Shown here piece after piece: positions 18,332-40,465 of a DNA stretch of 45,009 nt; the first letter of the stretch is position 1, and every line of letters starts with the position of its first letter. Position numbers and translations under genes: made by a program. The stretch lies in the UHGV virus genome UHGV-0208172, one strand, 5' to 3'. Origin of the DNA: a virus. The notes beneath the pieces are model-generated. The model did no database searches and was not told the DNA's origin. It saw nothing but the letters and a program-made list of their open reading frames with translations.

Positions 18332-18360
18332 TTGCACACCCCAACATAATAGGATACTAT
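18332..18360 (+). promoter_or_regulatory. sigma70-like early promoter (class A: TTGCAC-N17-TACTAT) with conserved leader
   Basis: TTGCAC ACCCCAACATAATAGGA TACTAT TCACTTACCGAAACGAGA...GAGGAG; near-identical copies at 19738, 30714-30742 (-) and 40437-40465 (-). Confidence 0.6.
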
Positions 18361-18385
18361 TCACTTACCGAAACGAGACAGAGGA

Positions 18386-18586
18386 GTGAGGGTTATGTTT
18401 AAGAAGGGTCAGTTGGTTAAAACGATGTACGGTAGCTTAGGTATTATTGAAAAGAAATCGACAGTGTACCGAAGTTCTTATGTCGTTAGCTTACTCAGGG
18501 AGCACGGGTTAAGTTCCGCGGCGTATTACCGAGAGTATGAAATGAAACTAATTGGCAACAATTTTAAATTCAAAGGGGCGAAGTGA
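18386..18586 (+). CDS. hypothetical early protein (likely start ATG 18395, 63 aa)
   Basis: First ORF after class A promoter; RBS GAGGAG. Confidence 0.5.
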   Translation: MRVMFKKGQLVKTMYGSLGIIEKKSTVYRSSYVVSLLREHGLSSAAYYREYEMKLIGNNFKFKGAK

Positions 18587-18789
18587 TGGAAGAATTATTT
18601 GAAGAACTTAAACATCATAAACTGGAGAGGGTGCATTTCCAGGTAAATAGATACGAGGTTATTTTGCTAGATGGCCCGACTATTTCTTCCGGGACATGTG
18701 AGCTCTTGCTAAAAGTTTTACGTGCACTACGAACGGCATCGAATCATGATGCTCGCGCCGACGACTCTGAGGGAGGTTGCCGTGAATAA
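18583..18789 (+). CDS. hypothetical early protein
   Basis: Overlapping start/stop with upstream ORF. Confidence 0.45.
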   Translation: MMEELFEELKHHKLERVHFQVNRYEVILLDGPTISSGTCELLLKVLRALRTASNHDARADDSEGGCRE

Positions 18790-18837
18790 TTACCCGTTTA
18801 TTTTAATCATCAGCGCAGTTTATGTGGTGCACGCGTT

Positions 18838-19071
18838 GTGGGGGCTGATATGAGAAAACACATAATCAAGGTAGACCATCTGGACGGGGCTAAATTGCCG
18901 ACAAATAAAGTGGAAACGTGGTGCGGGGCCGCCCCGTCATACGGTGAATGGCTGTTCCAGGACGCTCAACACGCTTTATACGCTGTAGAAAACGGATTCA
19001 GGCAAGAGCCTTGCGCCCAGTGTTTATCAGCTATCATCCAGGTAGCAAGTCGGGCATTAAGCGAGGACTAA
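18838..19071 (+). CDS. hypothetical early protein (likely start ATG 18850)
   Basis: ORF in tandem early array. Confidence 0.45.
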   Translation: MGADMRKHIIKVDHLDGAKLPTNKVETWCGAAPSYGEWLFQDAQHALYAVENGFRQEPCAQCLSAIIQVASRALSED

Positions 19072-19074
19072 GTT

Positions 19075-19218
19075 ATGAGAGAAGCATTCGAACGGTGGGC
19101 CGTAGTCGAGGGTCTGCCCGTTAACAAGGGTTCGAAGAAAGAGTACCTGAACGTTAAGACGCGTCTCGCGTGGCGGGCGTGGAAAGCTGGTGTGTTGTCT
19201 GTTGCGAATCCGAGGTGA
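19075..19218 (+). CDS. small hypothetical protein (47 aa)
   Basis: ATG with GAGGA RBS; fills gap between track ORFs; MREAFERWAVVEGLP... Confidence 0.35.
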   Translation: MREAFERWAVVEGLPVNKGSKKEYLNVKTRLAWRAWKAGVLSVANPR

Positions 19219-19221
19219 TTT

Positions 19222-19431
19222 ATGGGTGAGTGGATTAAGTGTAGTGAGCGGATGCCGGAAGAAGGTGAGGACGTACTTGTTTACGACGACTTAAGACAAG
19301 TCCACGAGGGTTACTATCTCCGATATGGAGATTATGTTAGTTGGGAGATTCATTCGTACGACTCATCCTATTACGATGAGGCTAACGTAACGCACTGGAT
19401 GCCGTTACCCGAGCCGCCATCGCTGGCGTAA
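19222..19431 (+). CDS. DUF551-like phage protein
   Basis: 69 aa; W...PE...VLVYD...VTHWMPLPEPP pattern characteristic of DUF551. Confidence 0.6.
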   Translation: MGEWIKCSERMPEEGEDVLVYDDLRQVHEGYYLRYGDYVSWEIHSYDSSYYDEANVTHWMPLPEPPSLA

Positions 19432-19556
19432 CAGGTCAATAGGTTACTATTTGGCTTTGTGACTTACGCTGCTACACAGCAGCGTATCATTTTTCTCATT
19501 TTTGTTCTATTTCACCAAACGCAACAATCGAAGCGACTATTGCAGGAGATGCAACA

Positions 19557-19730
19557 ATGATTACTAAAGAACAGGCCGAACGACTAATCACGTTAATCGA
19601 CACGATGATTGATGCGAAAACCGATTCAGCAACGGCAACAGAGGAATCCGCTACCTGGGCGATTGAAGAAAGAGAAGCAGAAGCGGAGCGCGCGTTACTG
19701 TCGTTCATTGATTCTATAACACACCAATAA
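19557..19730 (+). CDS. small hypothetical protein (57 aa)
   Basis: ATG with AGGAG RBS; preferred over low-complexity antisense ORF 19496..19708. Confidence 0.4.
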   Translation: MITKEQAERLITLIDTMIDAKTDSATATEESATWAIEEREAEAERALLSFIDSITHQ

Positions 19731-19737
19731 AATTTAC

Positions 19738-19766
19738 TTGCACACTGGGATAGAATAGACTACTAT
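19738..19766 (+). promoter_or_regulatory. sigma70-like early promoter (class A: TTGCAC-N17-TACTAT)
   Basis: TTGCAC ACTGGGATAGAATAGAC TACTAT TCATTTACACGAACGAGAGGAG. Confidence 0.55.
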
Positions 19767-19797
19767 TCATTTACACGAACGAGAGGAGAGGCTGAAG

Positions 19798-20259
19798 ATG
19801 AGTAATAAAAACGAAGTATTCGAGTACCTGATTGACCAACTACGGCAGCAGGTAAACAACAACCCATACAAGCAACAGTGCGAAGACCTGGCGCGTGAGG
19901 TGCAGTCACTTAAGAATCAGTTACGGGATGCTTCGGCGCAGCTTAAGGAACTAACCTGTGCGCTGGATTGCGCTGAAAACGAGGTTATGTGTCTTCGTTC
20001 AGTCGTTGACCTGGACCCTAAAGGCGCGATTGGGTACATCCGGCGGGCAAATAGTGCAATGACTGACACCATGCGCCGCCAATACCTTAGCAAAGCACTT
20101 GAGGAACTCGGATGTAAGGATGTGCCTGAGCAATCCGGTTGCCGCAGGGAAGATACACAGGAGTGCGAACACGAATGGAGGGTAGTGCATTACTCAGCAG
20201 GGTTAGAGACGAATAAATGCCGGCTTTGTGGGGCTGAAAAAGAGGTTCGCTACAAATGA
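19798..20259 (+). CDS. hypothetical protein with N-terminal coiled-coil and C-terminal Cys/His-rich region
   Basis: 153 aa; C-terminal CEHEW...CRLCG possible zinc-binding motif. Confidence 0.55.
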   Translation: MSNKNEVFEYLIDQLRQQVNNNPYKQQCEDLAREVQSLKNQLRDASAQLKELTCALDCAENEVMCLRSVVDLDPKGAIGYIRRANSAMTDTMRRQYLSKALEELGCKDVPEQSGCRREDTQECEHEWRVVHYSAGLETNKCRLCGAEKEVRYK

Positions 20260-20459
20260 CCAGCATCTTATTTATATGGGTACTGTCAGCGGGCCAGATG
20301 CAACTAGCGGCATCGGAAACGTTTTACTCGATGGAGGCGTGCCAGTCAGCGGCACGCGCCGCAGAGAACGCGCACTTCCTGTTCCAGGGTGACAAGCCCA
20401 ACGATTCAGAGGTACGTGCTATCTGCTCACCTAAGCGACTTGGTAAACAGGAGAAGTGA
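20256..20459 (+). CDS. small protein with hydrophobic N-terminal signal/TM segment
   Basis: 67 aa; ATGA coupling; MTSILFIWVLSAGQMQLAA. Confidence 0.45.
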   Translation: MTSILFIWVLSAGQMQLAASETFYSMEACQSAARAAENAHFLFQGDKPNDSEVRAICSPKRLGKQEK

Positions 20460-20710
20460 TTATGATTAAACTATACGCAGAGCGCGATTTAGAAATGCTC
20501 GACATGGCTAACAATTACTATTCAAGACATGTGATGGCCGTGACAGAGGAAGGGTTAAACAGTAAATCATCTATCGCCGCGGAGTTGGCGTACCGTGACT
20601 GGATTATTGATGAACAGCAAAAAGAGTTACAGAAATACAAAGACCAGTTCCCGGATTACGTAGAGTGCGCGAACTGTGGGTCAGTTACACATGTGGAAGG
20701 GGTGGAGTGA
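20456..20710 (+). CDS. hypothetical protein
   Basis: 84 aa; overlapping start/stop with neighbours. Confidence 0.45.
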   Translation: MIMIKLYAERDLEMLDMANNYYSRHVMAVTEEGLNSKSSIAAELAYRDWIIDEQQKELQKYKDQFPDYVECANCGSVTHVEGVE

Positions 20711-21015
20711 TGATTGACGTATATATCTATTGGAGCGGGATAGCTTTTAATTTTACCCTTGCCGCTGGGGTTCTTTGGTTGCTTTGGCGCTGGGTGCTGT
20801 TCCCTGCCGTAGAAGCGGCAAGCATGGTGCGGTACTACCGAAGAATCGGAAAAGTGCACGGGATTAAAGTGCACAACTGGTTCAGGCTCTTCCTCGCTAA
20901 CTACGAATTGTTTGGGCGCACGTTCACAGCGCAGCGGTGCGCCTACGGCCACTGGGAAGGGGTAGGGCGTTGGGAGGTATTTCCTGCGGAGGCTGAAAAT
21001 GAGCCTTGCAACTGA
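20665..21015 (+). CDS. hypothetical membrane protein (likely start ATG 20710)
   Basis: One predicted TM helix IAFNFTLAAGVLWLLWRWVLF. Confidence 0.45.
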   Translation: MRELWVSYTCGRGGVMIDVYIYWSGIAFNFTLAAGVLWLLWRWVLFPAVEAASMVRYYRRIGKVHGIKVHNWFRLFLANYELFGRTFTAQRCAYGHWEGVGRWEVFPAEAENEPCN

Positions 21016-21292
21016 CATCCTGAAACGAAGCGGCCTTGCGCCGCTGTCGCCGAGAGCTAAAACACAGATATGCAAGCGCAGGGGTAACGCGCTGTACCTT
21101 GAAATTCAGGCCAGGCGCAAAGCGGTCCGCGCCTGTGGATTCCAGAACGGGAAGGCCGTGAATCTCGGTGAGTTTAAGACACAGGAACGCGCCACAATCG
21201 CAAACCGGTTATTTAATTACTGGAAATCGCTGGGGTATGATGATATTCCGACGAAACCACAGAGACGACAGTACATCTGGAGACACAAATGA
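20999..21292 (+). CDS. basic hypothetical protein, possible nucleic-acid binding
   Basis: 97 aa, Arg/Lys-rich; RBS GGAGG; directly upstream of HslV-like gene. Confidence 0.5.
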   Translation: MSLATDILKRSGLAPLSPRAKTQICKRRGNALYLEIQARRKAVRACGFQNGKAVNLGEFKTQERATIANRLFNYWKSLGYDDIPTKPQRRQYIWRHK

Positions 21293-21729
21293 CTACTATC
21301 GCATTTGACGGAAAGACAATGGCCTGTGACACCCGTGTTGTGTGCGGGAGTAACTGTTACAACACAGACACTAAGATATACGAGAATGATTTCGCTGTTA
21401 TTGGTGTGGCTGGTGATGCGGGGGTTGGAATCCTTTTAGTGAAGGACGATAGTATTTTAGTGCCTAAGCATTACGACTTCGATTTCGAAGCCCTGGTGTT
21501 CGTGAAAGACACAGAAAAGGTGTACAAAGTCGCGTTTTATAAATCATGGGATTGTGCTCTTAGTTCGGTTATTCCGATTGCGGACAGTTTTGCCGCCGTT
21601 GGTTCCGGTTCGCCTTATGCACTGGCGGCTATGGAATGCGAATATTCGGCACATGGTGGCGTAGCCGTTGCATCGAAGTTCGACACTAACACCGGTGGCA
21701 AGATTATTACCAAACAACTATTAGGATAA
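21289..21729 (+). CDS. proteasome beta-subunit / HslV-like N-terminal nucleophile hydrolase
   Basis: 146 aa; N-terminus MTTIAF (Thr2 as potential nucleophile), conserved Lys region, GSGS..ALAAME near C-terminus as in HslV/proteasome beta. Confidence 0.65.
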   Translation: MTTIAFDGKTMACDTRVVCGSNCYNTDTKIYENDFAVIGVAGDAGVGILLVKDDSILVPKHYDFDFEALVFVKDTEKVYKVAFYKSWDCALSSVIPIADSFAAVGSGSPYALAAMECEYSAHGGVAVASKFDTNTGGKIITKQLLG

Positions 21730-21788
21730 TTCCTAACCGTGCTATCCTCCAGTTACTGCATACTTAATACGCACCTGGAGGATTCATC

Positions 21789-22097
21789 TTGGATAAATTT
21801 ACTGAAACAGTGACAGGCTGGCTTCTGGCTGCCGCACTAGCCGGTGGGGTAATCGGGCTAAGGCAACATAAGTCCTCTATTTCCGGCCCTATCGACGGAT
21901 TCTGCTTTATAGCAACCGGCTTCACCTGCGCCGTATTTGGCGCACCTCTTGCCGCTCAATGGTTCGGTATTACCGGCGAACGTGAAATCGCCGGCCTCGG
22001 CTTCATTATCGCTATTCTCTGGATGCCTATCTATTCCCGCCTCTCCGGTATCGTCGCCGGAGAATACATCTCACGTCAAGGAGGCACAGATGAATGA
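21789..22097 (+). CDS. holin (three predicted TM helices), TTG start
   Basis: 102 aa; GGAGGA RBS 8 nt before TTG; hydrophobic segments; immediately upstream of endolysin. Confidence 0.6.
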   Translation: MDKFTETVTGWLLAAALAGGVIGLRQHKSSISGPIDGFCFIATGFTCAVFGAPLAAQWFGITGEREIAGLGFIIAILWMPIYSRLSGIVAGEYISRQGGTDE

Positions 22098-22362
22098 GTT
22101 ATTCTGGTTCGGCGGTATGCTGGCAATCGGAGGCACATCGCTGTTTAATGTATACCACCCCAGCGTTGACGACGGACTATTTGGCCGGGTGCTCTATATC
22201 CTGACCGCTATCGTCTGCGCTGCCGGGTGTATCCACCTGTTACAGGGCGGCATGTCACCGACGCTGCCTGAGACGTTAATCACATTAGTTGCGCTGCGCC
22301 AGATTCGTCAGGCGTGGCTGTCATACGGAGGACATAAGCGTGTCTCGAAACATTTCAGATAA
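22090..22362 (+). CDS. second holin-like / antiholin-like membrane protein
   Basis: 90 aa from ATG 22090 with RBS AGGAGG; two predicted TM helices; overlaps both neighbours. Confidence 0.5.
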   Translation: MNELFWFGGMLAIGGTSLFNVYHPSVDDGLFGRVLYILTAIVCAAGCIHLLQGGMSPTLPETLITLVALRQIRQAWLSYGGHKRVSKHFR

Positions 22363-22828
22363 TGGATTGCATTTCACCGCCACGTTCGAGGGATTCCGCG
22401 GAACTGCGTATCGCGCTACGCCGAACGAGAAGTACCTGACTATTGGCTATGGTCACTACGGGCCTGACGTAACACCAGGTAAGACCATCACACCAGGTCA
22501 AGGTCTCCTGTTACTGAATCGCGATATGGCTAAGGCCGTAGCTGCGGTTGACGCTGCAGCACACCATTCATTGACACAGGCGCAGTTCGATGCAGTGTGC
22601 GACCTGGTGTATAACGCGGGTGCTGGTGTGATTGCGGCTACTACCGGAACCGGTAAGGCGTTGCGTTCCGGTGACATCGCGACGCTGCGGGCTAAACTGG
22701 CACTGTTCATCAATCAGAACGGCAAACCGTTACTCGGCCTGCGCCGCCGTACCGCAGGACGTCTGGCGCTGTTCGACGGTAAACCGTGGCAGGAGGCAGA
22801 GGCTATTGGTCGCGCGGTGAAAGGTTGA
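22340..22828 (+). CDS. endolysin, GH24 lysozyme
   Basis: FEGFRGTAYR ... TIGYGHYG lysozyme signature; GTG start at 22340 with GGAGGA RBS (track ORF starts at upstream TTG 22289). Confidence 0.85.
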   Translation: MSRNISDNGLHFTATFEGFRGTAYRATPNEKYLTIGYGHYGPDVTPGKTITPGQGLLLLNRDMAKAVAAVDAAAHHSLTQAQFDAVCDLVYNAGAGVIAATTGTGKALRSGDIATLRAKLALFINQNGKPLLGLRRRTAGRLALFDGKPWQEAEAIGRAVKG

Positions 22829-22892
22829 CACCTGAGACTAATCCGACGATACTTAAATCACCTCCTGTTCCATCCCTCTGCTCTCCAGTTTT

Positions 22893-22926
22893 ATCCCGGC
22901 CCTGACCCAGCCGGGATTTTTTTTTT
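22893..22926 (+). terminator. strong rho-independent terminator after the lysis genes
   Basis: TCCCGGC-CCTGACCCA-GCCGGGA hairpin followed by T10. Confidence 0.8.
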
Positions 22927-22948
22927 ATCTATTTTCTGTAATGACTAG

Positions 22949-22977
22949 TTGACTATTACTCTCGACCCTACTATATT
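22949..22977 (+). promoter_or_regulatory. sigma70-like promoter (TTGACT-N17-TATATT) with ACGAGA leader
   Basis: TTGACT ATTACTCTCGACCCTAC TATATT then CGACAACGAGAACGGAG before ATG 23014. Confidence 0.5.
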
Positions 22978-23013
22978 TACTCCATCGACAACGAGAACGG
23001 AGTAGAGAGAGAA

Positions 23014-23202
23014 ATGATGACTAAGATTAAGCATACCGATAACTGGGGCGATTTCATGGAGATAGAGAAGTGCCGGGACGGGACATTACTTATAACTTGT
23101 ACAGACGGAGATAGCGACGAATCGGTTAGTGTTAACGTGAGTATGGATGATTTTATGATTATTGTTGGGCAAGTGGCGTCTTTTTACGGAGATGATAAAT
23201 GA
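23014..23202 (+). CDS. hypothetical acidic protein (62 aa)
   Basis: First ORF after promoter at 22949. Confidence 0.45.
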   Translation: MMTKIKHTDNWGDFMEIEKCRDGTLLITCTDGDSDESVSVNVSMDDFMIIVGQVASFYGDDK

Positions 23203-23348
23203 AAATCACAGATATTGAAGCATTCGAAGATGCACAACTGATGGCTCGCATCGCCATTAATAACCTGAGCGACAATATCCCGGCGGACGCGTTCTGGGCC
23301 GCTGCGATGCGGGCACTGAAAGCAGCTTATGCAGGAGAGAAGAAATGA
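23199..23348 (+). CDS. small hypothetical protein (49 aa)
   Basis: ATGA-coupled ORF below track cut-off; MKITDIEAFEDAQLMARIA... Confidence 0.35.
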   Translation: MKITDIEAFEDAQLMARIAINNLSDNIPADAFWAAAMRALKAAYAGEKK

Positions 23349-23503
23349 GCGAGTCAGAAGGAAATATCACAACACCATCCGCCGGGAAGAAAGTCAACCG
23401 CACCCCGTTCCCGACACGCGAGGAACTGATGAAACGTAACAGTTTCCCCGGGCCGGACAAGAACAAATATCTCAATCGCATGTGGGGAGAGCGTAAAGAA
23501 TGA
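23345..23503 (+). CDS. small hypothetical protein (52 aa)
   Basis: ATGA-coupled ORF; MSESEGNITTPSAGKK... Confidence 0.35.
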   Translation: MSESEGNITTPSAGKKVNRTPFPTREELMKRNSFPGPDKNKYLNRMWGERKE

Positions 23504-23673
23504 CTAACAACGAATACGAGAAACTTAGCGTCGAATCCGCGACCGGTGAATCTGAAATAGCATGGATTGACACCAACATTGAGCACCACTTACGGCAAGT
23601 AGACATCCTTATGGAACGCCGCCGTGAACTTATTAACCGCTTTAACCTGAACAAAGGTGACGCCAATGCCTAA
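23500..23673 (+). CDS. small hypothetical protein (57 aa)
   Basis: ATGA-coupled ORF; MTNNEYEKLSVESATGESEIAWIDT... Confidence 0.35.
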   Translation: MTNNEYEKLSVESATGESEIAWIDTNIEHHLRQVDILMERRRELINRFNLNKGDANA

Positions 23674-23818
23674 AATCACAATCACATCGCTCGAGCGCCG
23701 TATTCTGGGGCTTGAGTCGGAGAAACAGACGTTAGGCGGGCAACTATCAATTAACGGTGAGTTTCAACTGGAGGCGTTTAAGTTGCTGCTTGAGCGCATG
23801 AAGAATGAAAGCGCTTAA
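23666..23818 (+). CDS. small hypothetical protein (50 aa)
   Basis: Overlapping-start ORF; MPKITITSLERRILGLESEKQ... Confidence 0.35.
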   Translation: MPKITITSLERRILGLESEKQTLGGQLSINGEFQLEAFKLLLERMKNESA

Positions 23819-23987
23819 GCCGGTAGTTATTGATGGCGTCCTGTGGAAACCCTACTCGGTTAATCACATCGACGCCGACGGGAAGAAGTTCAGCTTCTAC
23901 ATTTTTGCAATTAGCCGTGAGCACGCGGCCTGTGTGGTCGACGATATACGTGAGACGGCGTGGCTTGGTGATGAGATAGTGGGGTGA
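23805..23987 (+). CDS. hypothetical protein (60 aa)
   Basis: Track ORF in tandem small-gene array. Confidence 0.4.
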   Translation: MKALKPVVIDGVLWKPYSVNHIDADGKKFSFYIFAISREHAACVVDDIRETAWLGDEIVG

Positions 23988-23991
23988 GAGT

Positions 23992-24252
23992 ATGGAACAG
24001 ATTGAGCAACTCAAGATGGACAACAAAGACCTTAAGAAGGCGCTGGATAAGATGAACGGTAAATATTCAAAAGCAACTCAGGAGCTGACCGCGGCGAAAC
24101 TGGAAGTTGAACACTTAGTTCGTGTACGCAACATGCTAGAGAAAGAAAAAATTTCACGTAGCCAGAAAATGCGAACAGACACAAAAATATCAATGTTAAT
24201 TGGTATCGTGGTTGGAATGTTAATTATGTGGGGTGTTGGATATGTTCAGTGA
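23992..24252 (+). CDS. coiled-coil protein with C-terminal TM anchor
   Basis: 86 aa; heptad-like N-terminus, C-terminal ISMLIGIVVGMLIMWGVGYV. Confidence 0.5.
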   Translation: MEQIEQLKMDNKDLKKALDKMNGKYSKATQELTAAKLEVEHLVRVRNMLEKEKISRSQKMRTDTKISMLIGIVVGMLIMWGVGYVQ

Positions 24253-24394
24253 CATTAACGCAGCAATCGAAGAAGCAATCTGGCGACGTTACAACGGCAC
24301 TTCTGCCTGGTACAACGCGGTAATATGGTCGCCGTGGTGCAGGACCGCGATAACAAATATCCGAATGCGATGTGGACAACGAGGAATTTCTTAG
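24242..24394 (+). CDS. small hypothetical protein (50 aa), weak
   Basis: Only + frame open between neighbouring ORFs; Trp/Cys-rich, low plausibility. Confidence 0.25.
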   Translation: MFSDINAAIEEAIWRRYNGTSAWYNAVIWSPWCRTAITNIRMRCGQRGIS

Positions 24395-24632
24395 GATGAT
24401 TACCAGCATTCCGAACCTGATTAAAGAATTTGGCACGATGGCGGAGACATGCCGGCAAACCGGTATCAACGAAATGACGATTGCCAAGTACAGTAAAGAC
24501 GTTGATTGTGAGCGCCATGTAATTTATAACAATCGTCTGATGACGCACGTTAAGACAAGCCCGGTGTTATTCACGCGCCGGGGTATCACTAAAACAGAGC
24601 AACGCATTGCTAAAAAGGAGAGCGGGGAATGA
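24372..24632 (+). CDS. putative HTH DNA-binding protein (likely start ATG 24396)
   Basis: HTH-like segment AETCRQTGINEMTIAKYSK. Confidence 0.5.
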   Translation: MDNEEFLRMITSIPNLIKEFGTMAETCRQTGINEMTIAKYSKDVDCERHVIYNNRLMTHVKTSPVLFTRRGITKTEQRIAKKESGE

Positions 24633-24811: not shown

Positions 24812-24912
24812 GACTACTAATCATACCTAACGCATGGGCTATTGCCGTAGCTAACGACCATTACGGCGGCGATGGTAAAAGAGCACCACGACACGGCCTA
24901 TATAACTGATAC

Positions 24913-24934
24913 AAGCCCTCTACGGAGGGCTTTT
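24913..24934 (+). terminator. rho-independent terminator after early region
   Basis: GCCCTC-TACG-GAGGGC hairpin followed by TTTTCT. Confidence 0.6.
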
Positions 24935-28317: not shown

Positions 28318-28328
28318 GTTCGCATATA

Positions 28329-28348
28329 GCCCCGAAAGGGGCTTTCTT
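28329..28348 (+). terminator. hairpin attenuator / weak terminator after portal gene
   Basis: AGCCCC-GAAA-GGGGCT followed by TTCTTA. Confidence 0.4.
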
Positions 28349-28353
28349 ATAGT

Positions 28354-29430
28354 ATGCTATTAACTTTAGTGCCACAGGATTTAACTATGAGCTTACTTAC
28401 ATCCCTAATCAGCCACCAGATATGGCTGCAACGCACCGCATCCGGTGAAGTGAAAGACCTTGCGCCGTTTCTTCAGGAAATGCGAGACGAAATCAAACGG
28501 CAGGTGCTGTTATTCGGCGACGACGGTCGCAGCACTGCGCGACTGAATAAATTGTTACGCGACCTGGAAGAAGCACTGAGCGGACTTACAGGCGACTGGC
28601 AAACAAAGCTGACAGAAGACCTTAAAGAACTGGCGGCGTATGAAGCGGAGTGGAATGTAAAAACGCTGACGGCTAACGTAGACGCGGAATTTGTTACGCC
28701 CACTGCTGAACAGGTGTGGGCCGCTGCCGAGTTTCAACCATTATCGTTAGGTGACAAGCCAGTCGACTTCACTAAGCTGATGGCAGGCTGGGGTGAAACA
28801 GAAGTCGCGCGCCTTGTAACCGGTGTTAAGATGGGTTTCGTTCAAGGCCTGACAACGCGGCAGATTGTTAAGAATGTCGTAGGCGCTGGCGGGCTGGCGG
28901 ACATCTCTGAGCGTAACGCAGCTACTGTAATCCGCACCGCGCTGTCCCATGTATCTAACGAAGCACGCAACGAGACGTACCGCCAGAACGACGACATCAT
29001 CGAGAAATATGAATGGGTGTCAACGCTGGACAGCCGTACCAGTACGATTTGCAGAGCCAAGGACGGTATGAAGTGGGAAATTGGTAAGGGGCCGATGCCC
29101 CCCGCCCATCCGAACTGTCGAAGTACCACTGCACCCGTAATCAGTTCGGAGTTCGACTTCCTGGATAAAGGCGCAAAACGCGCGGCTAAGGGCGCAGACG
29201 GCGGTACTCAGGTAAGCGCGGACACCACCTATTACGAGTTCCTGAAACAACAACCGGCATGGTTTCAGGATGAAGCACTCGGGCCAACCCGCGGTAAGAT
29301 TTTCCGCAACAGCGGTATATCGCCAGAAGAGTTTCGCGTAATATCTGTAGATGGTTTCGGGAATCCGCTCACGCTTAAGCAGATGGCGGAACTCGATAAA
29401 CGTGTTGCTGATTATCTGAAAGGGGATTAA
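28354..29430 (+). CDS. head morphogenesis protein (Mu F / SPP1 gp7-like by position)
   Basis: 358-aa ORF following portal; alternative start ATG 28387. Confidence 0.6.
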   Translation: MLLTLVPQDLTMSLLTSLISHQIWLQRTASGEVKDLAPFLQEMRDEIKRQVLLFGDDGRSTARLNKLLRDLEEALSGLTGDWQTKLTEDLKELAAYEAEWNVKTLTANVDAEFVTPTAEQVWAAAEFQPLSLGDKPVDFTKLMAGWGETEVARLVTGVKMGFVQGLTTRQIVKNVVGAGGLADISERNAATVIRTALSHVSNEARNETYRQNDDIIEKYEWVSTLDSRTSTICRAKDGMKWEIGKGPMPPAHPNCRSTTAPVISSEFDFLDKGAKRAAKGADGGTQVSADTTYYEFLKQQPAWFQDEALGPTRGKIFRNSGISPEEFRVISVDGFGNPLTLKQMAELDKRVADYLKGD

Positions 29431-29891: not shown

Positions 29892-29893
29892 TA

Positions 29894-29916
29894 AAAGGCC
29901 CCATTATGGGGCCTTA
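29894..29916. terminator. bidirectional terminator (AAGGCCCC-ATTAT-GGGGCCTT)
   Basis: Hairpin between convergent + packaging genes and - moron; same family as 5535 and 37986. Confidence 0.6.
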
Positions 29917-30679: not shown

Positions 30680-30713
30680 TTCTAAATTCCTTATCTCTCG
30701 TTTCGATAAGTGA

Positions 30714-30742
30714 ATAGTATCCTATTATGTTGGGGTGTGCAA
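30714..30742 (-). promoter_or_regulatory. sigma70-like early promoter (class A: TTGCAC-N17-TACTAT), reverse orientation
   Basis: Read on - strand: TTGCAC ACCCCAACATAATAGGA TACTAT TCACTTATCGAAACGAGAGATAAGGAA...ATG. Confidence 0.6.
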
Positions 30743-30794: not shown

Positions 30795-30837
30795 AACTAT
30801 TCGAATAGTTGACTTTTCACTGAAAATATGCTAAGCT
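30795..30837 (+). promoter_or_regulatory. putative rightward promoter (TTGACT-N17-TAAGCT) overlapped by perfect 16-bp palindrome AACTATTCGAATAGTT
   Basis: Palindrome 30795-30810 overlaps the -35 hexamer (30809-30814). Confidence 0.45.
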
Positions 30838-31016
30838 CCACCTGAGCTTGTGAAGTATGAACAAGCGACCGCGGCGCGGGCAGGTAACGGAGCGGGACGT
30901 AAGTCCTGAGTGTAGTTACGCTGACGCGTTCGGAAGGGCCATACTCTATTGCTTGTGTAAAAAGTAACTGGTTTACTGAGATTACGCCGTTTCTATGTTT
31001 AAATGATAAGGACTAG

Positions 31017-31039
31017 CGCCCCGCTTTAAGGCGGGGCTT
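31017..31039 (+). terminator. hairpin terminator/attenuator about 25 nt upstream of the spanin start codon
   Basis: GCCCCGC-TTTAAG-GCGGGGC followed by TTT. Confidence 0.45.
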
Positions 31040-34115: not shown

Positions 34116-34151
34116 TACAACGGCCCTTCGGGGCCGTAATAAGGAAAGGTC

Positions 34152-34331
34152 ATGGCAGATAATTATGTAATCCGCGAAAAGTACACCCACGTTGACGTTG
34201 TTGACGGTCAGGTGATGCCTGTTCGCGGTGTGGTAGAGGCTGATGAACTGGTTGCAACCCAACCGGACAACGAAGAAGCGCACAACAACGGCGGTGGTAC
34301 TAAGCGTCGTCGCCGTAAGTCAGAGGAATAA
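34152..34331 (+). CDS. small hypothetical protein (59 aa) ending in a basic tail
   Basis: ATG with AAGGAAAGG RBS; below track cut-off. Confidence 0.4.
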   Translation: MADNYVIREKYTHVDVVDGQVMPVRGVVEADELVATQPDNEEAHNNGGGTKRRRRKSEE

Positions 34332-34334
34332 TTT

Positions 34335-34847
34335 ATGCCGCTAATCGTGGAAACTGGGGCAATCGTCCCGAATGCCGACAGTTACATTAGTCTGGCCGAC
34401 GCCCGCGCGTTAGCGGCTAATTATGGTCTGGAGTTACCTGCTGACGATACCGCTGCCGAAGTAGCTCTGCGCAACGGCGCTACGTATGTCGGGCTTGCAG
34501 AACCCCAGATGTGCGGCCGTCGCGTATCAGCTGAACAGTCTCTGGCGTACCCTCGCACCGGTGTTACGCTGAATGGCTTCCCAGTAGCTAACAATACCAT
34601 TCCGAAGCAGGTGATTCTTGCGCAAGTAATCGCCGCTGTTACATATGGCGCAGGCGCTGATGTCCGGGCTAACTCAGACGGGCGTTCCGTGCAGACTGAG
34701 CGTGTCGAGGGCGCGGTGACAGTGACGTACTTCAACAACGGCAGCAGTGGAGCCACAACCGCGATTACCGCCGCTGACGACGCTTTACGTCCGTTACTGT
34801 GTGGCGGTCTTAACAATGGCTTCTCATTTAACGTGTACCGGGGTTAA
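34335..34847 (+). CDS. putative head-tail connector / head completion protein
   Basis: 170 aa; position between capsid and tail genes. Confidence 0.45.
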   Translation: MPLIVETGAIVPNADSYISLADARALAANYGLELPADDTAAEVALRNGATYVGLAEPQMCGRRVSAEQSLAYPRTGVTLNGFPVANNTIPKQVILAQVIAAVTYGAGADVRANSDGRSVQTERVEGAVTVTYFNNGSSGATTAITAADDALRPLLCGGLNNGFSFNVYRG

Positions 34848-34849
34848 AA

Positions 34850-35464
34850 ATGGCGAAGACTAAAACAGAGATATTTACGCTAATCGGTTCAGAGCTACCT
34901 GATAACACGACCGGGCAAATCACGCCAGCGAAGTTACGTGGGGTGTTAACCCAGATGGCTGACTCACCTATTTACGCCACTCCAGGTGTTAAAGAGGTTG
35001 AAGTTCTCCGTGCTGCGTCGACCGTGACACAAGCGCCCACCGCGGTAGATACAGCGTTGCAGTTAACTTTCGGGGCCGCTCAGGGTAGCGCTTCTGACCC
35101 AGTAATGATTAATGCCGCAGGGCTGGTTACGTTCAACACCGCTGGTAACTACGCCGTTCGCATCAAGTTACAGGCCGGTCGCTCAGGCGCTAGTGGAACG
35201 TCCATCCTGTTGTCCCGCATTCTTCTCAATGGCGCCCAGTACGGTTCTCCGGCCGCCACGAAACTGGTAAGCGCCGATACTACAATCCCGATTGAATCTC
35301 GCGTCGTTATTAACCCCACCGCGGGCCAGACGTTTTCCGTGCAGATTATGCGGGATAGCGCCGGGAGCAACTTTGGTGGCGTATACCCGCAAGTGGCTAC
35401 CGTAACTGCATGGGGTACAGCTCCGTCCGCGCTACTGGTTATCTCTAGACTGGAGGCCGCGTAA
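34850..35464 (+). CDS. hypothetical structural protein
   Basis: 204 aa; in connector region. Confidence 0.45.
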   Translation: MAKTKTEIFTLIGSELPDNTTGQITPAKLRGVLTQMADSPIYATPGVKEVEVLRAASTVTQAPTAVDTALQLTFGAAQGSASDPVMINAAGLVTFNTAGNYAVRIKLQAGRSGASGTSILLSRILLNGAQYGSPAATKLVSADTTIPIESRVVINPTAGQTFSVQIMRDSAGSNFGGVYPQVATVTAWGTAPSALLVISRLEAA

Positions 35465-35823
35465 TGAGCACAGCTTTCAGTAAACGTATGCAAGGCGTGG
35501 GTACGCGCCTGCTAACCAAATTCGGCAGTACGGTATCTCTTGTTCGCGCTGGTTCGAAAGTATGGGATGAAGTTCTCGGTGAGTACGTCTGGTCCGCGGA
35601 TGAAGTGTTGCCGTTGAAGGCCGTTCCTGTTCCGGTAAACGCGGGACTGGTAAACGGTACGACGATTCAGGTGGGTGACATGATTGTTAAAGCGGATTGC
35701 AGTGTCGTTCCGAAGATGGAAGACAAAGTGCAATTCGGCGGCGAACAATGGTCTGTCGTAGCTATAGAGAAGAAGATGGTTAACGATGATGTCGTGGCAT
35801 ACTTTATTCAGGTGAGAAAATGA
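35464..35823 (+). CDS. putative head-tail joining protein
   Basis: 119 aa; ATGA coupling. Confidence 0.45.
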   Translation: MSTAFSKRMQGVGTRLLTKFGSTVSLVRAGSKVWDEVLGEYVWSADEVLPLKAVPVPVNAGLVNGTTIQVGDMIVKADCSVVPKMEDKVQFGGEQWSVVAIEKKMVNDDVVAYFIQVRK

Positions 35824-36215
35824 GTTTCTCGCTTGATGTCTCTAAGTTCGTGGAAAAGGCGAAGAAGAATCCCGAGAAGGTGATGCGTCAGGTGTCTATC
35901 AAGCTGTTTTCCGCTATCATAAAGGCGAGTCCGGTAGATACAGGCCGCTTTCGTATGAACTGGATGGCGTCTGGCGGTACTCCTGCTTCCGGGATTACGG
36001 ACGCTACAGATAAATCAGGAAACACGGCAACCGGAAACGCTACAAGTTTCGTGCTGAAAGCCGCTGACTGGCACGAGTTCACGCTGACAAATAACCTGCC
36101 GTATGCACAACGGCTGGAGTATGGTTGGTCGCAGCAAGCGCCACAAGGATTTGTCAGGGTGAACGTGTCCCGCTTCCAGCAACTCATTAACGAAGAAGCC
36201 AACAAGGTGAAATGA
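35820..36215 (+). CDS. putative neck / tail completion protein
   Basis: 131 aa; overlapping starts within connector module. Confidence 0.45.
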   Translation: MSFSLDVSKFVEKAKKNPEKVMRQVSIKLFSAIIKASPVDTGRFRMNWMASGGTPASGITDATDKSGNTATGNATSFVLKAADWHEFTLTNNLPYAQRLEYGWSQQAPQGFVRVNVSRFQQLINEEANKVK

Positions 36216-36350
36216 TGGACAAGTCACGTCGTCAATACTTCATACTCGCGTGCCATTGGCTGGCCGGAAGTAGGTACGATTTCGTCATGCTACATCTTAA
36301 TTTCGGAAAGTCACGAGTTATGGCGACGAAGGCTCGCGCTGTGGTAGCCT

Positions 36351-36809
36351 ATGACCGTCGTCTTGCCTCAGAAGAAAGTAAATGTGGGGTATATGATGGG
36401 CTACTTTGAGGACTTAACAAAAGCGTTCGATGTGCCGCTGGTAGCCTTCGGAACAACCAACGGCATCAAGGTCGCGCTTGAAAACATCGACGCGCCGACG
36501 TCAACCGATACACCGTATCTGGCAAGTTACATGCTGCTTTCGGATACGGAACAGGCGGATTTGTTCTTCACGGAACAACGCTCTGGTATTTATCAGGTCG
36601 ACATTAACTACGCATCGGTGAAAGGTAGCGCACCAATCAATAAAATGGCAGACTTACTTAACACGGCGTTTAAAGCAGGTAAGTCATTTTCGCGTAACGA
36701 CATCTGCGCCGAGGTTCAATCGGTTAGCCTGGGGCCGCTGATTGTAGAAAACGGATGGACCAAACGACCCTTGTCAATTAACTTTATTGCATTCACCAAG
36801 AGGCTGTGA
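36351..36809 (+). CDS. putative tail terminator / tail tube-associated protein
   Basis: About 140-152 aa; immediately upstream of major tail protein. Confidence 0.45.
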   Translation: MTVVLPQKKVNVGYMMGYFEDLTKAFDVPLVAFGTTNGIKVALENIDAPTSTDTPYLASYMLLSDTEQADLFFTEQRSGIYQVDINYASVKGSAPINKMADLLNTAFKAGKSFSRNDICAEVQSVSLGPLIVENGWTKRPLSINFIAFTKRL

Positions 36810-37981
36810 ATATGGCTACAACTCCTTTTAAGGGCGCGAATACCGCGCAATTCTATGTGGCGGAAGTTACCCCGGGCGTAACACCAAGTAACCCGGTATG
36901 GTCGCCGTTGCGTAACACCGGTGGTGTTCCAGCTGTAACTCGCGATGCGCTGACCTCCAACGAACTGGACGGCAGCCGAGAAACCACATCCATCCGAACC
37001 GGTAACAAGCAGGTTAGCGGGGAGTATGCCATCGAACTTAGCTCCCGTAGCCAGGATGATTTCCTCGCGGGCGCGATGACTTCTACGTGGCAGGATGGGG
37101 TAACCTTATCCGCTGTTGGCATTACGGTAGACCCTGTGGCTAAAACCTTTACCCGCGCCACCGGCAGCTTCATTACTGACGGCGTAGAGGTCGGGGACCT
37201 TCTGTATTTTGACGCTTTAACCGGTGATAACTCTAAGCCGTTCATCGTTACCGCAGTAACTGCTACTGTGGTTACGGGTGCAGGTATTCAACACACCCTG
37301 ACCGCCGAAGGTCCTATCGAGACCGACGGTAAAACTGGCGATAAACTGGAAACCAGTAACGCGTGTAAGACGTTCTCCATCCTGACATGGTTCAAAGGGC
37401 AGTGCGGGAACCCGGACGCGTACATGTTGACCAAAGGCGTGGAAATCTCCGGTTTCACCATCGAGCAGGCCGTAAACGCTATGGTAACCGGCAGCTTCCC
37501 GTTCATCGGTCTGAGCCAGGAAATTCTTACCGCGCCGCCGACAGGTTCCGACTTCTCTCAGGTCACATTCACTGATGAGCCGTTCTCGTCGGTTGATGTG
37601 TCTGTGTTCGACGGGTCCACGCCGTTGCGTTGCGATACTCTCACTATCACAAACGACAACGGTGCTTCTGCGCAGTTCGAACTCGGCAACAGTAGCGTTG
37701 CGTTCGTGGAACGTGGTCGCGCGGCTAACACCTTCTCCATCTCTGGTAAGCTGTACGACATGGCGATGATTCAGAAGTTTATCAACGAACAGCAGGTAGA
37801 GATTAACTCTATTCTGGCGGGGGTAAATGGGGCTATGTCTTTTAGTCTGAAACGTGCCGAACTTACGGCGGTTACACCTGAGATTGGCGGCCCTGAGTCA
37901 ATTACTCAGTCCATTGAAGGTCAGGCTACTGGAAACCAGTACCAGTCGTCTATTGTTATCCAGCGTATCGCCTATGCATAA
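36806..37981 (+). CDS. major tail (tube) protein
   Basis: 391 aa; followed by strong bidirectional terminator; position in tail module. Confidence 0.65.
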   Translation: MNMATTPFKGANTAQFYVAEVTPGVTPSNPVWSPLRNTGGVPAVTRDALTSNELDGSRETTSIRTGNKQVSGEYAIELSSRSQDDFLAGAMTSTWQDGVTLSAVGITVDPVAKTFTRATGSFITDGVEVGDLLYFDALTGDNSKPFIVTAVTATVVTGAGIQHTLTAEGPIETDGKTGDKLETSNACKTFSILTWFKGQCGNPDAYMLTKGVEISGFTIEQAVNAMVTGSFPFIGLSQEILTAPPTGSDFSQVTFTDEPFSSVDVSVFDGSTPLRCDTLTITNDNGASAQFELGNSSVAFVERGRAANTFSISGKLYDMAMIQKFINEQQVEINSILAGVNGAMSFSLKRAELTAVTPEIGGPESITQSIEGQATGNQYQSSIVIQRIAYA

Positions 37982-37985
37982 AACT

Positions 37986-38008
37986 AAGGCCCCGTTTGGG
38001 GCCTTTTT
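37986..38008. terminator. bidirectional rho-independent terminator (AAGGCCCC-GTTT-GGGGCCTT + T5)
   Basis: Hairpin plus TTTTT; separates major tail gene from convergent reverse cassette. Confidence 0.7.
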
Positions 38009-38009
38009 C

Positions 38010-38564
38010 TTACAAACCTAATCTTAAAGCAATGCCTATAGCGTTCGATTTAACGTAACCCGGTATGATGTAGGTGTCATAATCTTTTACGCCATCAATA
38101 TCGTACAGGTAACCACGGCTGTCCCCTTCAAACGTATAGCCGTCTCTGTGCAAGCGAACGATTCTCACATCATGCCCCGCGGCAACGATAGGGGCCACTT
38201 CGCTGGCGAATCCACCGTCGGAAACTACAAAAACTTCGTTGCCGCCGGGCAAGTTTTCAGCAAGATACTTACCGAAATAATCACTACCAAGTACCGGTTT
38301 AATGAATTGTTCAGAGATAGCAATCATGAACTGACGTCGCGACAAACCATTAAGGAAGCCTTCCGGCTTTTCTTTCCGCGCTCGGTCGTCGTAGCCGTCG
38401 AGAAATTCGTGGTAAGCATCAGGGCCTAACGCCGCCAGGGCAACATTGAACATTGGATTCTTGAAACTGGCAGTTCCTTTTGCAAAGCCCATTTCTACCA
38501 GTGCCATAGCAAGAGTGTCTTTCCCGCAACCAGCAGGACCATTAAGAATAATTACCTTAGCCAT
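38010..38564 (-). CDS. P-loop nucleotide kinase, dNMP-kinase-like (T4 gp1-like) or polynucleotide 5'-kinase
   Basis: 184 aa; Walker A GPAGCGKDT at N-terminus; overall pattern resembles phage dNMP kinases. Confidence 0.65.
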   Translation of the reverse strand: MAKVIILNGPAGCGKDTLAMALVEMGFAKGTASFKNPMFNVALAALGPDAYHEFLDGYDDRARKEKPEGFLNGLSRRQFMIAISEQFIKPVLGSDYFGKYLAENLPGGNEVFVVSDGGFASEVAPIVAAGHDVRIVRLHRDGYTFEGDSRGYLYDIDGVKDYDTYIIPGYVKSNAIGIALRLGL

Positions 38565-39049
38565 TATTTATCACTCCCGTGCGATTTTAAGTGTGTAGAG
38601 TTCCCGTTACAGTCGTATTCAGTAACCGCGTGAGTGGTTATACCGAGGCCGCGGAAATGCTTTATTACCGCTGGCGAGTCGTCGAACGCACACAAGATTC
38701 TTTCTAGCCCGATCGCACGCAACACCTCTTCTTTAATTACGATGTCTTTTCTGTTGTCGTGTTTGCTGCGCATGATTAGCTGATAAAATTCGACGCGGTG
38801 GCGCTGCAGCCACATTCTGGTTTCTTTTTCTGCATCATCACTACGGCCCGTTAAAATAATAACGGCATAGCGACGATTGAGGGCGTTACACAGTTCGATG
38901 TTATCTCTAATTGGTTCATCATCTTTGCACGCCATGTTAAATGGCTTCCACGCCCACGTTTCGTCGTAGTTATCTTTCGGCAGCAGGTGCAAACGATGTG
39001 TCCCATCCGCCAATGTCCCGTCTAAATCGAAAATTACAATATCTTTCAT
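38564..39049 (-). CDS. HAD-superfamily phosphatase, polynucleotide-kinase 3'-phosphatase-like
   Basis: 161 aa; N-terminal FDLDGTLA motif, ILTGR, KEEV...FDD motif pattern like T4 Pnk phosphatase domain. Confidence 0.7.
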   Translation of the reverse strand: MKDIVIFDLDGTLADGTHRLHLLPKDNYDETWAWKPFNMACKDDEPIRDNIELCNALNRRYAVIILTGRSDDAEKETRMWLQRHRVEFYQLIMRSKHDNRKDIVIKEEVLRAIGLERILCAFDDSPAVIKHFRGLGITTHAVTEYDCNGNSTHLKSHGSDK

Positions 39050-40176
39050 CCCAGCATCTCCGGTGAAATAGTTAAACGTGCGACCTCGCCATATTCGGCG
39101 CTATAAGTAATTACATTTGCGCTACGGCCTGACATCCATCCGCCGCGGGAGGCGTAGGCGTCTTTAGCCGCTAAGGTGCGGTGTTGCTCAACAATCATGT
39201 TACGGCTTTCTACAATCTTCTGGTGGTGGAGATGTCCGACATGTGCGTAGCTGTACTCGCTTTCGCCAAATGCTTTGCGGAACTTAGCTATCATAATGGG
39301 TTCGACCACCTCAAACCGGCATTTATGCCCGTGTGTAAAGAACAGCGTCGTTTTCCCGTGTTGCACCATCTTGTAAACATCCGGCGACGTATCGACGAAC
39401 ACACGAGGCTCATTGCCATACAGTGTACTGAACATCTCAGCCAACCAAATCATTCCGCTTTCGTCGTGGTTCCCTTGCACGATAAGCAAGCGAACATTTT
39501 TATGTTTAACAAGGGCCATATCGACAACACGGCGGACCATACGAATCATGTAGCGGACCAGTTTCTGATAGCGTGTATCCGCATCAAGAACATGACCACT
39601 TGCGGGTGTAACTGCATCCAGGCTATCGAAGTGAGCGAGGTCGCCCAGCAGATTAATAACTCCTGTTCCTGCATCCGGTGCTTTCTGAAACGCTGCATCG
39701 AACCAACGAGAGAACAGGTCTTCTGCAATCTTCATATCCCAGTCGTCGCCGCTCTCGTCGGCCCAGGCCAGCATACCGAGATGGAAATCAGATACCGTGT
39801 AAAGATTAAGTAGCTTGTCGTCGCGTTTTGCTCGAGTCGCTTTAACAGGCGCAACCGGCGTAATCTCTGACTTCATACCTTCAACTACGGCTTTCATCAA
39901 TTCAACCTGACGTTCGGCGTCTGTGTCGGTCTTAACCCATTGCAACTTAGTGTTGCCGAACTCGTCTACCAGTGACGACGTTCCTTTAATCTTGTAGCCG
40001 TCTGGTACGAGGTGGCTAACGTCGCGTCCGTGGCCTACGCCTTTCTTAGCCAGCTTCGCTTTACGGATACGAATAACGCGGTCTGAGATGCCGTATTTAC
40101 GGGCGATGTCGATATTCTTCATCCCGGCGTTCAATTCTTCCTGTAACTGTTCGTCGGTTATTTTCTTCTTGGCCAT
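39046..40176 (-). CDS. calcineurin-like metallophosphoesterase with N-terminal HTH domain
   Basis: 376 aa; HTH NIDIARKYGISDRVIRIRK; phosphoesterase motifs SDFH, GDLAHFD, GNHDE, THGH, GHLHH. Confidence 0.75.
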   Translation of the reverse strand: MAKKKITDEQLQEELNAGMKNIDIARKYGISDRVIRIRKAKLAKKGVGHGRDVSHLVPDGYKIKGTSSLVDEFGNTKLQWVKTDTDAERQVELMKAVVEGMKSEITPVAPVKATRAKRDDKLLNLYTVSDFHLGMLAWADESGDDWDMKIAEDLFSRWFDAAFQKAPDAGTGVINLLGDLAHFDSLDAVTPASGHVLDADTRYQKLVRYMIRMVRRVVDMALVKHKNVRLLIVQGNHDESGMIWLAEMFSTLYGNEPRVFVDTSPDVYKMVQHGKTTLFFTHGHKCRFEVVEPIMIAKFRKAFGESEYSYAHVGHLHHQKIVESRNMIVEQHRTLAAKDAYASRGGWMSGRSANVITYSAEYGEVARLTISPEMLG

Positions 40177-40214
40177 GCTTACGTCCTCGTGTTTAGGATT
40201 TGTCCTATACTAGC

Positions 40215-40421
40215 TTACTTCTCGTTAACATTCGAGTTGCACGCCCAGATTAAAATAAAGACCCACGGCAGCATAGCCCAACCAAGAAACAGGTTAGCCA
40301 TGAATATAGCTAACTTCGCTTTATGGTTACGGAAGTACGCAACCAGGAAAGGCGCGAAATAAGCGAGCAGTGCAAACAGAATTAAGGAAACTGGTAAACT
40401 GGACATTTTAAACCCCTTCAT
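40215..40421 (-). CDS. superinfection-immunity-family small membrane protein (Imm-like)
   Basis: YFAPFLVAYFRNHKAKLAIFMANLFLGWAMLPWVFILIWA matches conserved pattern of this family; likely start ATG 40406 with AAGGGG RBS. Confidence 0.65.
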   Translation of the reverse strand: MKGFKMSSLPVSLILFALLAYFAPFLVAYFRNHKAKLAIFMANLFLGWAMLPWVFILIWACNSNVNEK

Positions 40422-40436
40422 TGTTGGTGTAAGTGA

Positions 40437-40465
40437 ATAGTACCCTATTATATTGGGGTGCGCAA
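40437..40465 (-). promoter_or_regulatory. sigma70-like early promoter (class A variant: TTGCGC-N17-TACTAT), reverse orientation
   Basis: Read on - strand: TTGCGC ACCCCAATATAATAGGG TACTAT TCACTTACACCAACAATG. Confidence 0.55.

Follow-up and report, generated by a model that had tools for sequence, protein, structure and literature searches.

The closest described counterparts of the system reported here are the Cro and repressor proteins of lambdoid phages. Operators of phage 434 are 14-bp sites with two-fold symmetry and ACAA half-sites, clustered in tripartite OR and OL regions, and the P22 C2/Cro operators are of the TTAAG-N4-CTTAA type. Another arrangement is that of the stoperators of cluster A mycobacteriophages (L5 gp71), which are asymmetric, oriented with transcription, located mostly outside promoters and involved in lysogenic immunity. 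Here we analysed UHGV virus genome UHGV-0208172 (45,009 nucleotides; this whole stretch is referred to as the window), in which one 14-bp dyad, AATAG-N4-CTATT, is shared by 9 to 11 promoters. We consider it probable, although by no means assured, that these sigma70 promoters are repressed, through this palindromic operator, by a 434-Cro-like protein of the XRE family encoded at 14798-15013.

The locus resembles 434 Cro and its OR/OL regions in the regulator, a 71-aa single-domain HTH_3 protein, in the 14-bp two-fold operator lying over the promoter core and in a divergent regulator region with unequal sites. Unlike in 434 and other lambdoid phages, operators occur singly at nine or more promoters scattered across the genome instead of in clusters, and the half-site is AATAG, not ACAA. 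P22 has the same 5-N4-5 layout with outer A/T positions and a comparable start of the recognition helix (GVSQGAINQ here, GVSNVAISQ in P22), but the half-site bases differ. As with stoperators, many copies of one repressor site occupy intergenic positions, at least one of them (19438) outside a promoter; unlike stoperators, the sites are palindromic, all but 19438 lie in promoters, and the phage is virulent.

The window corresponds to essentially the whole genome of a Kagunavirus-type siphophage (Guernseyvirinae), a virulent Escherichia coli phage. It is ∼90% identical to phiSD1, Bas73, SZH-1 and NTEC3 over the aligned 63–70% of an 8-kb test stretch, and its layout is the same as that of the annotated relative Schulenburg. 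The Schulenburg annotation contains no CI-type repressor, integrase or lysogeny module of a lambdoid immunity region, a helix-turn-helix (HTH) scan of the window gave no CI-type repressor, and no lysogeny genes are reported in PMC7203180 and PMC9825357.

Exact copies of AATAG-N4-CTATT start at eight positions (8176, 11972, 14710, 18348, 19438, 19754, 30713 and 40436). With up to one mismatch allowed, 13 sites were counted against 0.93±1.02 expected from dinucleotide shuffles, none of 100 shuffles reaching 13; a chance origin of the family is excluded. The palindrome is the sole outlier among all 5-N(2..6)-5 palindromes, both in the window and in five related genomes, and the sequence CTATTCAC occurs five times, each time in a promoter region. 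Seven of the eight exact sites are intergenic and the eighth falls within the final 30 nt of a gene, while intergenic DNA makes up 5.2% of the window on a rough gene map; the motif thus withstood the comparison of coding with intergenic occurrences. A sweep at up to two mismatches for additional late-promoter sites gave no more intergenic sites. The operator consensus, of 14–18 bp, is (A/T)(T/G)AATAG-N4-CTATT(C/A)(A/T).

Four promoter elements, P1 to P4, had been recognized in the initial annotation as class A, and all four are present at their coordinates and strands (Table 1), with a TTGCAC or TTGCGC −35 hexamer, a 17-nt spacer and a TACTAT −10 hexamer followed by TCAYTTA. TTGCRC-N17-TACTAT has four zero-mismatch matches in the window and no fifth, and P1 and P3 share 47 of the 48 nucleotides that run from TTGCAC through ACGAGA. 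The core described for them, GTGAATAGT-N3-CTATTAT, also exists: its reverse complement, ATAATAG-N3-ACTATTCAC, is what the promoter strand reads, and the inverted repeat within it is AATAG-N4-CTATT. Two details needed adjustment. The distance to the first gene is only roughly fixed (34, 31, 34 and 30 nt from −10 to ATG for P1 to P4), and the ACGAGA leader belongs to P1, P2 and P3, P4 having ACACCAACAAT instead. Moreover, the list is genuine but incomplete, since it omits three leftward promoters, an exact site without promoter, two degenerate sites and both sites of the 14674-14797 control region. A regulon limited to four operons is therefore replaced by one of at least seven strong promoters, three of which (B1 to B3) have better hexamers, plus weaker sites.

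These three leftward promoters, which we term class B, are the top three consensus promoter matches between 5 and 25 kb and head replication-gene units. The position of the palindrome distinguishes the two classes. In class A it begins 10 nt past the −35 hexamer and covers the −10 hexamer, whereas in class B it begins 4 nt past the −35 and ends at the first T of the −10, a 6-bp shift with respect to the −35. In a third architecture, class C, represented at 22944, a one-mismatch palindrome lies over the −35 hexamer. This promoter heads a rightward unit of small genes and packaging genes, has AACGAGA 12 nt past its −10 (close to the 11–12 nt of class A leaders) and is kept in both Kagunavirus and Jerseyvirus, the Jerseyvirus mismatch falling in the opposite half. 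The exact site at 19438, by contrast, has no promoter; it lies 7 nt past the stop codon of gene 19222-19431, just ahead of the terminator at 19465-19486, and its position is kept in Kagunaviruses. Near-invariant half-sites, the 6-bp register shift between classes A and B and the existence of an exact site without promoter indicate that the palindrome is an element separate from the promoter.

Table 1. Positions of the promoters, palindromes, regulator genes and terminator-like hairpins in the window.
Feature	Position	Strand	Hexamers	Palindrome	Leader, start codon and details
P1, class A	18332-18363	+	TTGCAC 18332-18337; TACTAT 18355-18360	AATAGGATACTATT 18348-18361; extended ATAATAG-N4-CTATTCA 18346-18363	AACGAGA at 18372; first-gene ATG 18395
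P2, class A	19738-19769	+	−35 19738-19743; −10 19761-19766	19754-19767	AACGAGA at 19778; ATG 19798
P3, class A	30711-30742	-	−35 30742-30737; −10 30719-30714	30713-30726	AACGAGA; ATG 30679
P4, class A	40434-40465	-	TTGCGC 40465-40460; −10 40442-40437	40436-40449	ACACCAACAAT; ATG probably 40406
B1, class B	8171-8199	-	TTGACG-N17-TATAGT, 10/12 consensus	8176-8189	ACACCAACAAT; ATG 8137; overlaps final 30 nt of gene 8168-8452
B2, class B	11967-11995	-	TTGACA-N17-TATAGT, 11/12 consensus	11972-11985	Upstream of single-stranded-DNA-binding-type gene (ATG 11913) and DNA polymerase A
B3, class B	14705-14733	-	TTGACA-N17-TATAGT, 11/12 consensus	14710-14723, in spacer, touching −10	AACGAGAGGAG; ATG 14673; heads leftward early/replication unit
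Class C promoter	22944-22977	+	TTGACT-N17-TATATT 22949-22977, 10/12 consensus	One-mismatch ACTAGTTGACTATT, over −35	
Tentative class C	30804-30837	+	TTGACT 30809-30814	One-mismatch AATAGTTGACTTTT, over TTGACT	
Weak operator	14754-14767	+	Invariant −10 TACTAT 14761-14766	AATATGGTACTATT, over −10	Ahead of XRE gene
Promoterless exact palindrome	19438-19451		No recognisable −35	19438-19451	
71-aa XRE/HTH_3 gene	14798-15013	+			Monocistronic; followed by terminator 15002-15021; proposed operator-binding repressor
HTH_17 (excisionase/AlpA-like) gene	17586-17756	-			Probably 56 aa, ATG 17756; open reading frame span 17586-17840
Terminator-like hairpin	5535-5555				
Terminator-like hairpin	15002-15021				
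Terminator-like hairpin	19465-19486				
Terminator-like hairpin	29895-29915				
Terminator-like hairpin	37986-38005				

The four class A elements have the features expected of sigma70-type host promoters at the heads of transcription units, and are predicted to be such. Class A retains the key TTG and TA...T positions, class B matches 10–11 of the 12 consensus positions, and the hexamers of both are near-invariant over 150 unique homologous sequences. The promoters lie 30–60 nt ahead of the first gene, in units bounded by terminator-like hairpins. The placement of sigma70 promoters at unit heads and of the −10 within an operator-like palindrome is thereby upheld. What does not hold is a plain host sigma70 programme as the whole explanation, because it fails to account for a symmetric element present in differing registers to the hexamers. 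A role at the RNA level is unlikely, since the palindromes are upstream of the presumed transcript starts; Rfam detected no RNA family in the window.

To compare lineages, 41 Kagunavirus and 13 Jerseyvirus genomes or contigs were analysed, the class A and class B promoters of the Kagunaviruses being represented by 72 and 78 unique sequences, respectively. Variation in these sequences falls in the flanks and in part of the centre, and the hexamers and the two half-sites hardly change. Class A and class B promoters also occur at orthologous positions in Jerseyviruses, where the site is more symmetric (TAATAG-N4-CTATTA); the sole systematic difference between the half-sites of the two genera affects one of them (TGAATAG in Kagunavirus versus TTAATAG or ATAATAG in Jerseyvirus). 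A 60-nt element around P1 (18325-18384) matched 256 phage records, all of them Guernseyvirinae, and gave zero matches in 5,426 complete E. coli genomes; a host or prophage origin of the element is rejected on this basis.

The analysis was extended to 80 IMG/VR loci encoding XRE relatives, tabulated together with reference genomes. Every locus with the Kagunavirus-type helix (GVSQGAINQLALG) or the Jerseyvirus-type helix (GVSQSLITHLATG) contains 2–8 copies of the palindrome, usually as its top palindrome. Loci with other helix types (∼35) contain none or occasionally one, and Tsm2 has two. In VSiA, a Cornellvirus with a Salmonella host, AATAG-N4-CTATT is absent even at one mismatch, and the promoters equivalent to P1, P3 and P4 contain TATTAS-N4-STAATA instead. 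In a further lineage (loci L074 and L080), TTGACx-N17-TAnnnT promoters, three per locus, have TTAGC-N2-GCTAA in the spacer. De novo detection of palindromes in Tsm2 and VSiA by exact counting gave weak signals, which could be interpreted through the orthologous promoters. The different palindromes of VSiA, L074 and L080 indicate that the palindrome is set by the phage lineage and not by a shared host factor. At the level of lineages, which are not independent samples, differing helix types accompany differing or absent palindromes. A comparison with Serratia phage eta was discarded as not relevant, because eta shares the structural module only.

Two HTH proteins, XRE/HTH_3 and HTH_17, were found in the window, and the only one of Cro/C1 type is the 71-aa XRE protein, which is devoid of a C-terminal domain. 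It matches Pfam HTH_3 (E=2e-12, 47.2 bits against a cut-off of 23), and its best solved relative is 434 Cro (E=2e-6, residues 6-68, nearly full length); matches to the 434 repressor and to P22 C2 (E about 0.006 for the latter) were also obtained. The geometry of the site fits this protein, given the 14-bp dyads of 434 and the 5-N4-5 layout of the P22 operators. The divergent control region in front of the XRE gene (14674-14797) combines the strong B3 operator (14710) with a weak site (14754), an arrangement kept in both genera. Only the right half-site of the weak site is conserved across Kagunavirus and Jerseyvirus, and we regard it as a putative autoregulatory site; in Jerseyviruses the XRE gene's own promoter reads TTGCAC-N17-TACTAT. 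Two regulators had been proposed for testing in the initial annotation, the Cro-like protein and an AlpA-like one. The former is favoured by its likeness to 434 Cro and P22 C2, by the geometry of the operator and by the two sites in the region that controls its own gene; the evidence detailed below speaks against the AlpA-like protein.

The order of genes around the regulator differs among relatives. In Cornellvirus and Tsm2 loci (L006-L010, including Tsm2, SE1 and VSiA) the XRE gene is followed by the helicase-primase gene in the same orientation, which resembles lambda cro with the replication genes after it. In Kagunavirus and Jerseyvirus (14798-17297 in the window) the helicase-primase gene is inverted, and XRE is a stand-alone unit with its own terminator.

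According to the model that we favour, host RNA polymerase would read the four class A elements as sigma70-dependent promoters, each with one operator. The same operator would act in B1 to B3, which serve the leftward replication genes, and a weaker form of it in the XRE promoter and in one or two rightward promoters. A dimer of the 71-aa XRE protein would most likely occupy the operator. The class A site, in its 18-bp form, would extend from about −20 to −3, covering the −10, and the class B site from about −27 to −10, between the hexamers; protein bound in either position would be expected to block RNA polymerase. As XRE accumulates after infection, promoters with perfect operators would be turned down together, while more of the protein would be needed to affect promoters with degenerate sites, the XRE promoter among them. 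That the protein binds, that it represses and does not activate, and when it acts are all inferred here from sequence features.

Several observations weigh against this model. The XRE proteins of Kagunavirus and Jerseyvirus are only 49% identical and differ at four recognition-helix positions, yet the AATAG core is shared. The co-variation of helix and palindrome exists at the lineage level only, and any lineage-specific phage protein would give the same pattern. Tsm2 has two exact sites, none of them in its XRE control region. In addition, the P2 unit, which starts downstream of the terminator at 19465-19486, continues into lysis genes, and a degenerate site lies on a late-type promoter, so that a simple shut-off of early genes may be too simple a description; the label 'early' is itself tentative for the units behind the class A promoters. 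The lone transcriptome (PMC12645636) is too coarse to help, with samples at 5–120 min for a latent period of ∼30 min and with gene-level timing instead of transcript starts. In that study of phage K1B4, HTH gene 008 is early and DNA-binding gene 004 middle; we matched these two genes to HTH_17 and XRE of the window by gene order only.

Alternatively, the operator could be as described and its binder another phage protein, either the HTH_17 (AlpA/excisionase-like) protein or an unrecognised small early protein, an alternative we hold to be unlikely. HTH_17 is 78–88% identical between Kagunavirus and Jerseyvirus, against 49% for XRE, which suits a shared core better. It is also absent from VSiA, itself without sites, and co-occurs with the palindrome in nearly all loci, and K1B4 gene 008, its probable orthologue by gene order alone, appears among the early genes in PMC12645636. 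However, two loci (L023 with six sites and L043 with three) encode XRE and helicase-primase and keep intact promoters with no HTH_17 detectable even at E≤10, its place being occupied by an unrelated 149-aa protein and a 47-aa CxxC protein. Nor is there a palindrome at the putative promoter of the HTH_17-containing unit (17956-17928). HTH_17/excisionase-type proteins typically bind direct or asymmetric repeats and not 14-bp dyads, which further argues against this binder. HTH_17 is disfavoured because L023 and L043 keep intact sites without it. A partly different possibility, compatible with the operator model, is that the near-identity of class A elements results from recombination, as portable promoter cassettes or boundaries for moron exchange. 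P1 and P3 agree at spacer positions needed for neither promoter nor operator, the ACCCCAAYAT spacer is kept even in Jerseyvirus, and the cargo behind the P3 position varies, with four small genes here and a sliding-clamp-like gene in Schulenburg. Nevertheless, conservation is concentrated on the hexamers and half-sites instead of being even, and class B promoters share the palindrome and not the flanks; we judge recombination quite improbable as the explanation.

The palindrome has also been viewed as part of a phage-specific promoter, read either by an RNA polymerase of the phage or by the host enzyme after a phage factor has redirected it. Seven 'phage promoters' with the consensus tgAATAGTa-ccTATTat-T were reported by PHIRE for fBC-Eco01 and ascribed to a phage RNA polymerase (PMC9825357), and seven PHIRE promoters were listed for Golestan (PMC7203180). 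The fBC-Eco01 consensus is the reverse complement of the core in the window, that is, the same motif, and the constant overlap of the element with the −10 or −35 region speaks for this view. But no phage RNA polymerase was found in a Pfam scan of the five open reading frames of 696–852 aa (tail J, tailspike, Pol A, AAA helicase-primase and tape measure) nor in the Schulenburg annotation, and on this ground a promoter for such an enzyme is rejected. Furthermore, the palindrome is two-fold symmetric, occurs in either orientation and once without promoter, and is shifted by 6 bp between the two classes with respect to good sigma70 hexamers. A phage-specific promoter in either form thus appears very improbable. 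We give still less credence to exploitation by the phage of a host protein that binds the palindrome and is present in both E. coli and Salmonella. Phages of these two host genera have an identical core despite diverged XRE proteins, and ACTAGTTGACTATT weakly resembles a TrpR-type ACTAG half-site. Against it, VSiA, with a Salmonella host like Jerseyvirus, has no site at up to one mismatch and a different palindrome at equivalent promoters, and the P1 element found no match among the E. coli genomes searched. We know of no E. coli regulator with the consensus AATAG-N4-CTATT.

Returning to repression by the XRE protein, a bolder form of the model, which is possible but rather doubtful, would make the 71-aa Cro-like protein the master timer of a subfamily of virulent siphophages, with an operator on nearly every sigma70 promoter and with operator quality and register encoding the order of shut-off. 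The operators would then be graded, from perfect over the −10 and perfect in the spacer to one mismatch over the −35 and a half-site on the regulator's own promoter. Such a circuit would need no phage sigma factor, polymerase modifier or polymerase, and the same protein could silence the early promoters of superinfecting genomes.

The units behind the remaining class A promoters were also delimited. P3 leads into four small leftward genes, stopping at the bidirectional terminator 29895-29915. The P4 unit (38010-40406, minus strand) is closed by the terminator at 37986-38005 and encodes a T4 Imm-like superinfection immunity protein, a calcineurin-like metallophosphoesterase, a PNKP-type HAD phosphatase and an unknown protein of 184 aa; RNA repair or anti-defence is a possible role of this cassette. 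The class A spacer ACCCCAAYAT (18338-18347, 30730-30736 and 40453-40459), which separates the −35 from the palindrome, is kept across Kagunavirus and Jerseyvirus, with no obvious need for it in promoter or operator. In the B3 unit, the product of gene 13238-13600 (minus strand) gave a sub-threshold match to Phage_ProQ_C_like (24.7 bits against a cut-off of 27) and may be an RNA-binding protein.

Leaders and terminators show regularities of their own. The sequence (G/A)AACGAGA lies 11–13 nt past the −10 of five promoters (18372, 19778, 30696 on the minus strand, 14686 on the minus strand, and 22990), with a spacing fixed to the promoter and not to the ATG. It is also found in VSiA, Tsm2 and Jerseyvirus loci, and is thus kept even in Cornellvirus and Tsm2, described as being without the palindrome; it may serve as a signal for translation or RNA stability. 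P4 and B1 have another type of leader in common, ACACCAACAAT. The bidirectional terminators at 5535-5555, 29895-29915 and 37986-38005, where convergent units meet, have nearly the same sequence, AAGGCCCC-N3/4-GGGGCCTT, which ranks second in frequency among the palindromes of all related genomes.

A few sites stand apart from the strong promoters. The promoterless palindrome is located 316 bp upstream of the P2 operator, and in several relatives (for instance L023:14630-14675) two or three tandem copies of GGTGTAACAGGT precede it and a terminator follows; it could be a roadblock or a looping partner. Right after the terminator 28328-28343, a one-mismatch palindrome (TATAGTATGCTATT, 28348-28361) overlaps the head-morphogenesis start codon; it is kept in two Kagunaviruses and may be either a weak site or fortuitous. 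The tentative class C site at 30804 has a poor −10, TAAGCT (30832-30837), inside a hairpin stem. From this candidate promoter (30809) a transcript of ∼190 nt would reach the strong terminator at 31018-31037. No open reading frame of at least 45 aa exists in 30809-31037 on the plus strand, and Schulenburg has a 36-aa open reading frame annotated there; the transcript could be a small RNA or encode a micro-protein. Finally, the replacement of HTH_17 and its 77-aa neighbour (17356-17756 in the window) by the 149-aa and CxxC...CxxC 47-aa proteins in L023:12559-13144 and L043:3624-4209 marks this position as a swappable early-gene slot beside the helicase-primase.

The motif itself is already published. 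The PHIRE papers (PMC9825357 and PMC7203180) contain no operator reading, no link to XRE and no distinction of architectures, and we found neither an operator interpretation of the motif nor a connection with the XRE gene in any paper. The circuit is tidy but conventional, a variation on a classic theme without a new principle. Few phages are isolated more often than Kagunaviruses and Jerseyviruses for therapy and biocontrol of E. coli and Salmonella, and their gene regulation is essentially undescribed. If the model is true, promoter annotation could be corrected in more than 250 deposited genomes, and a circuit of Cro and operator over replication, small early and accessory genes (Imm and RNA-repair-like) would be a direct handle for engineering. 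The lineage-specific palindromes would then constitute a natural set of orthogonal repressor/operator pairs, and these phages would provide a simple system in which to study how a virulent phage times its gene expression.

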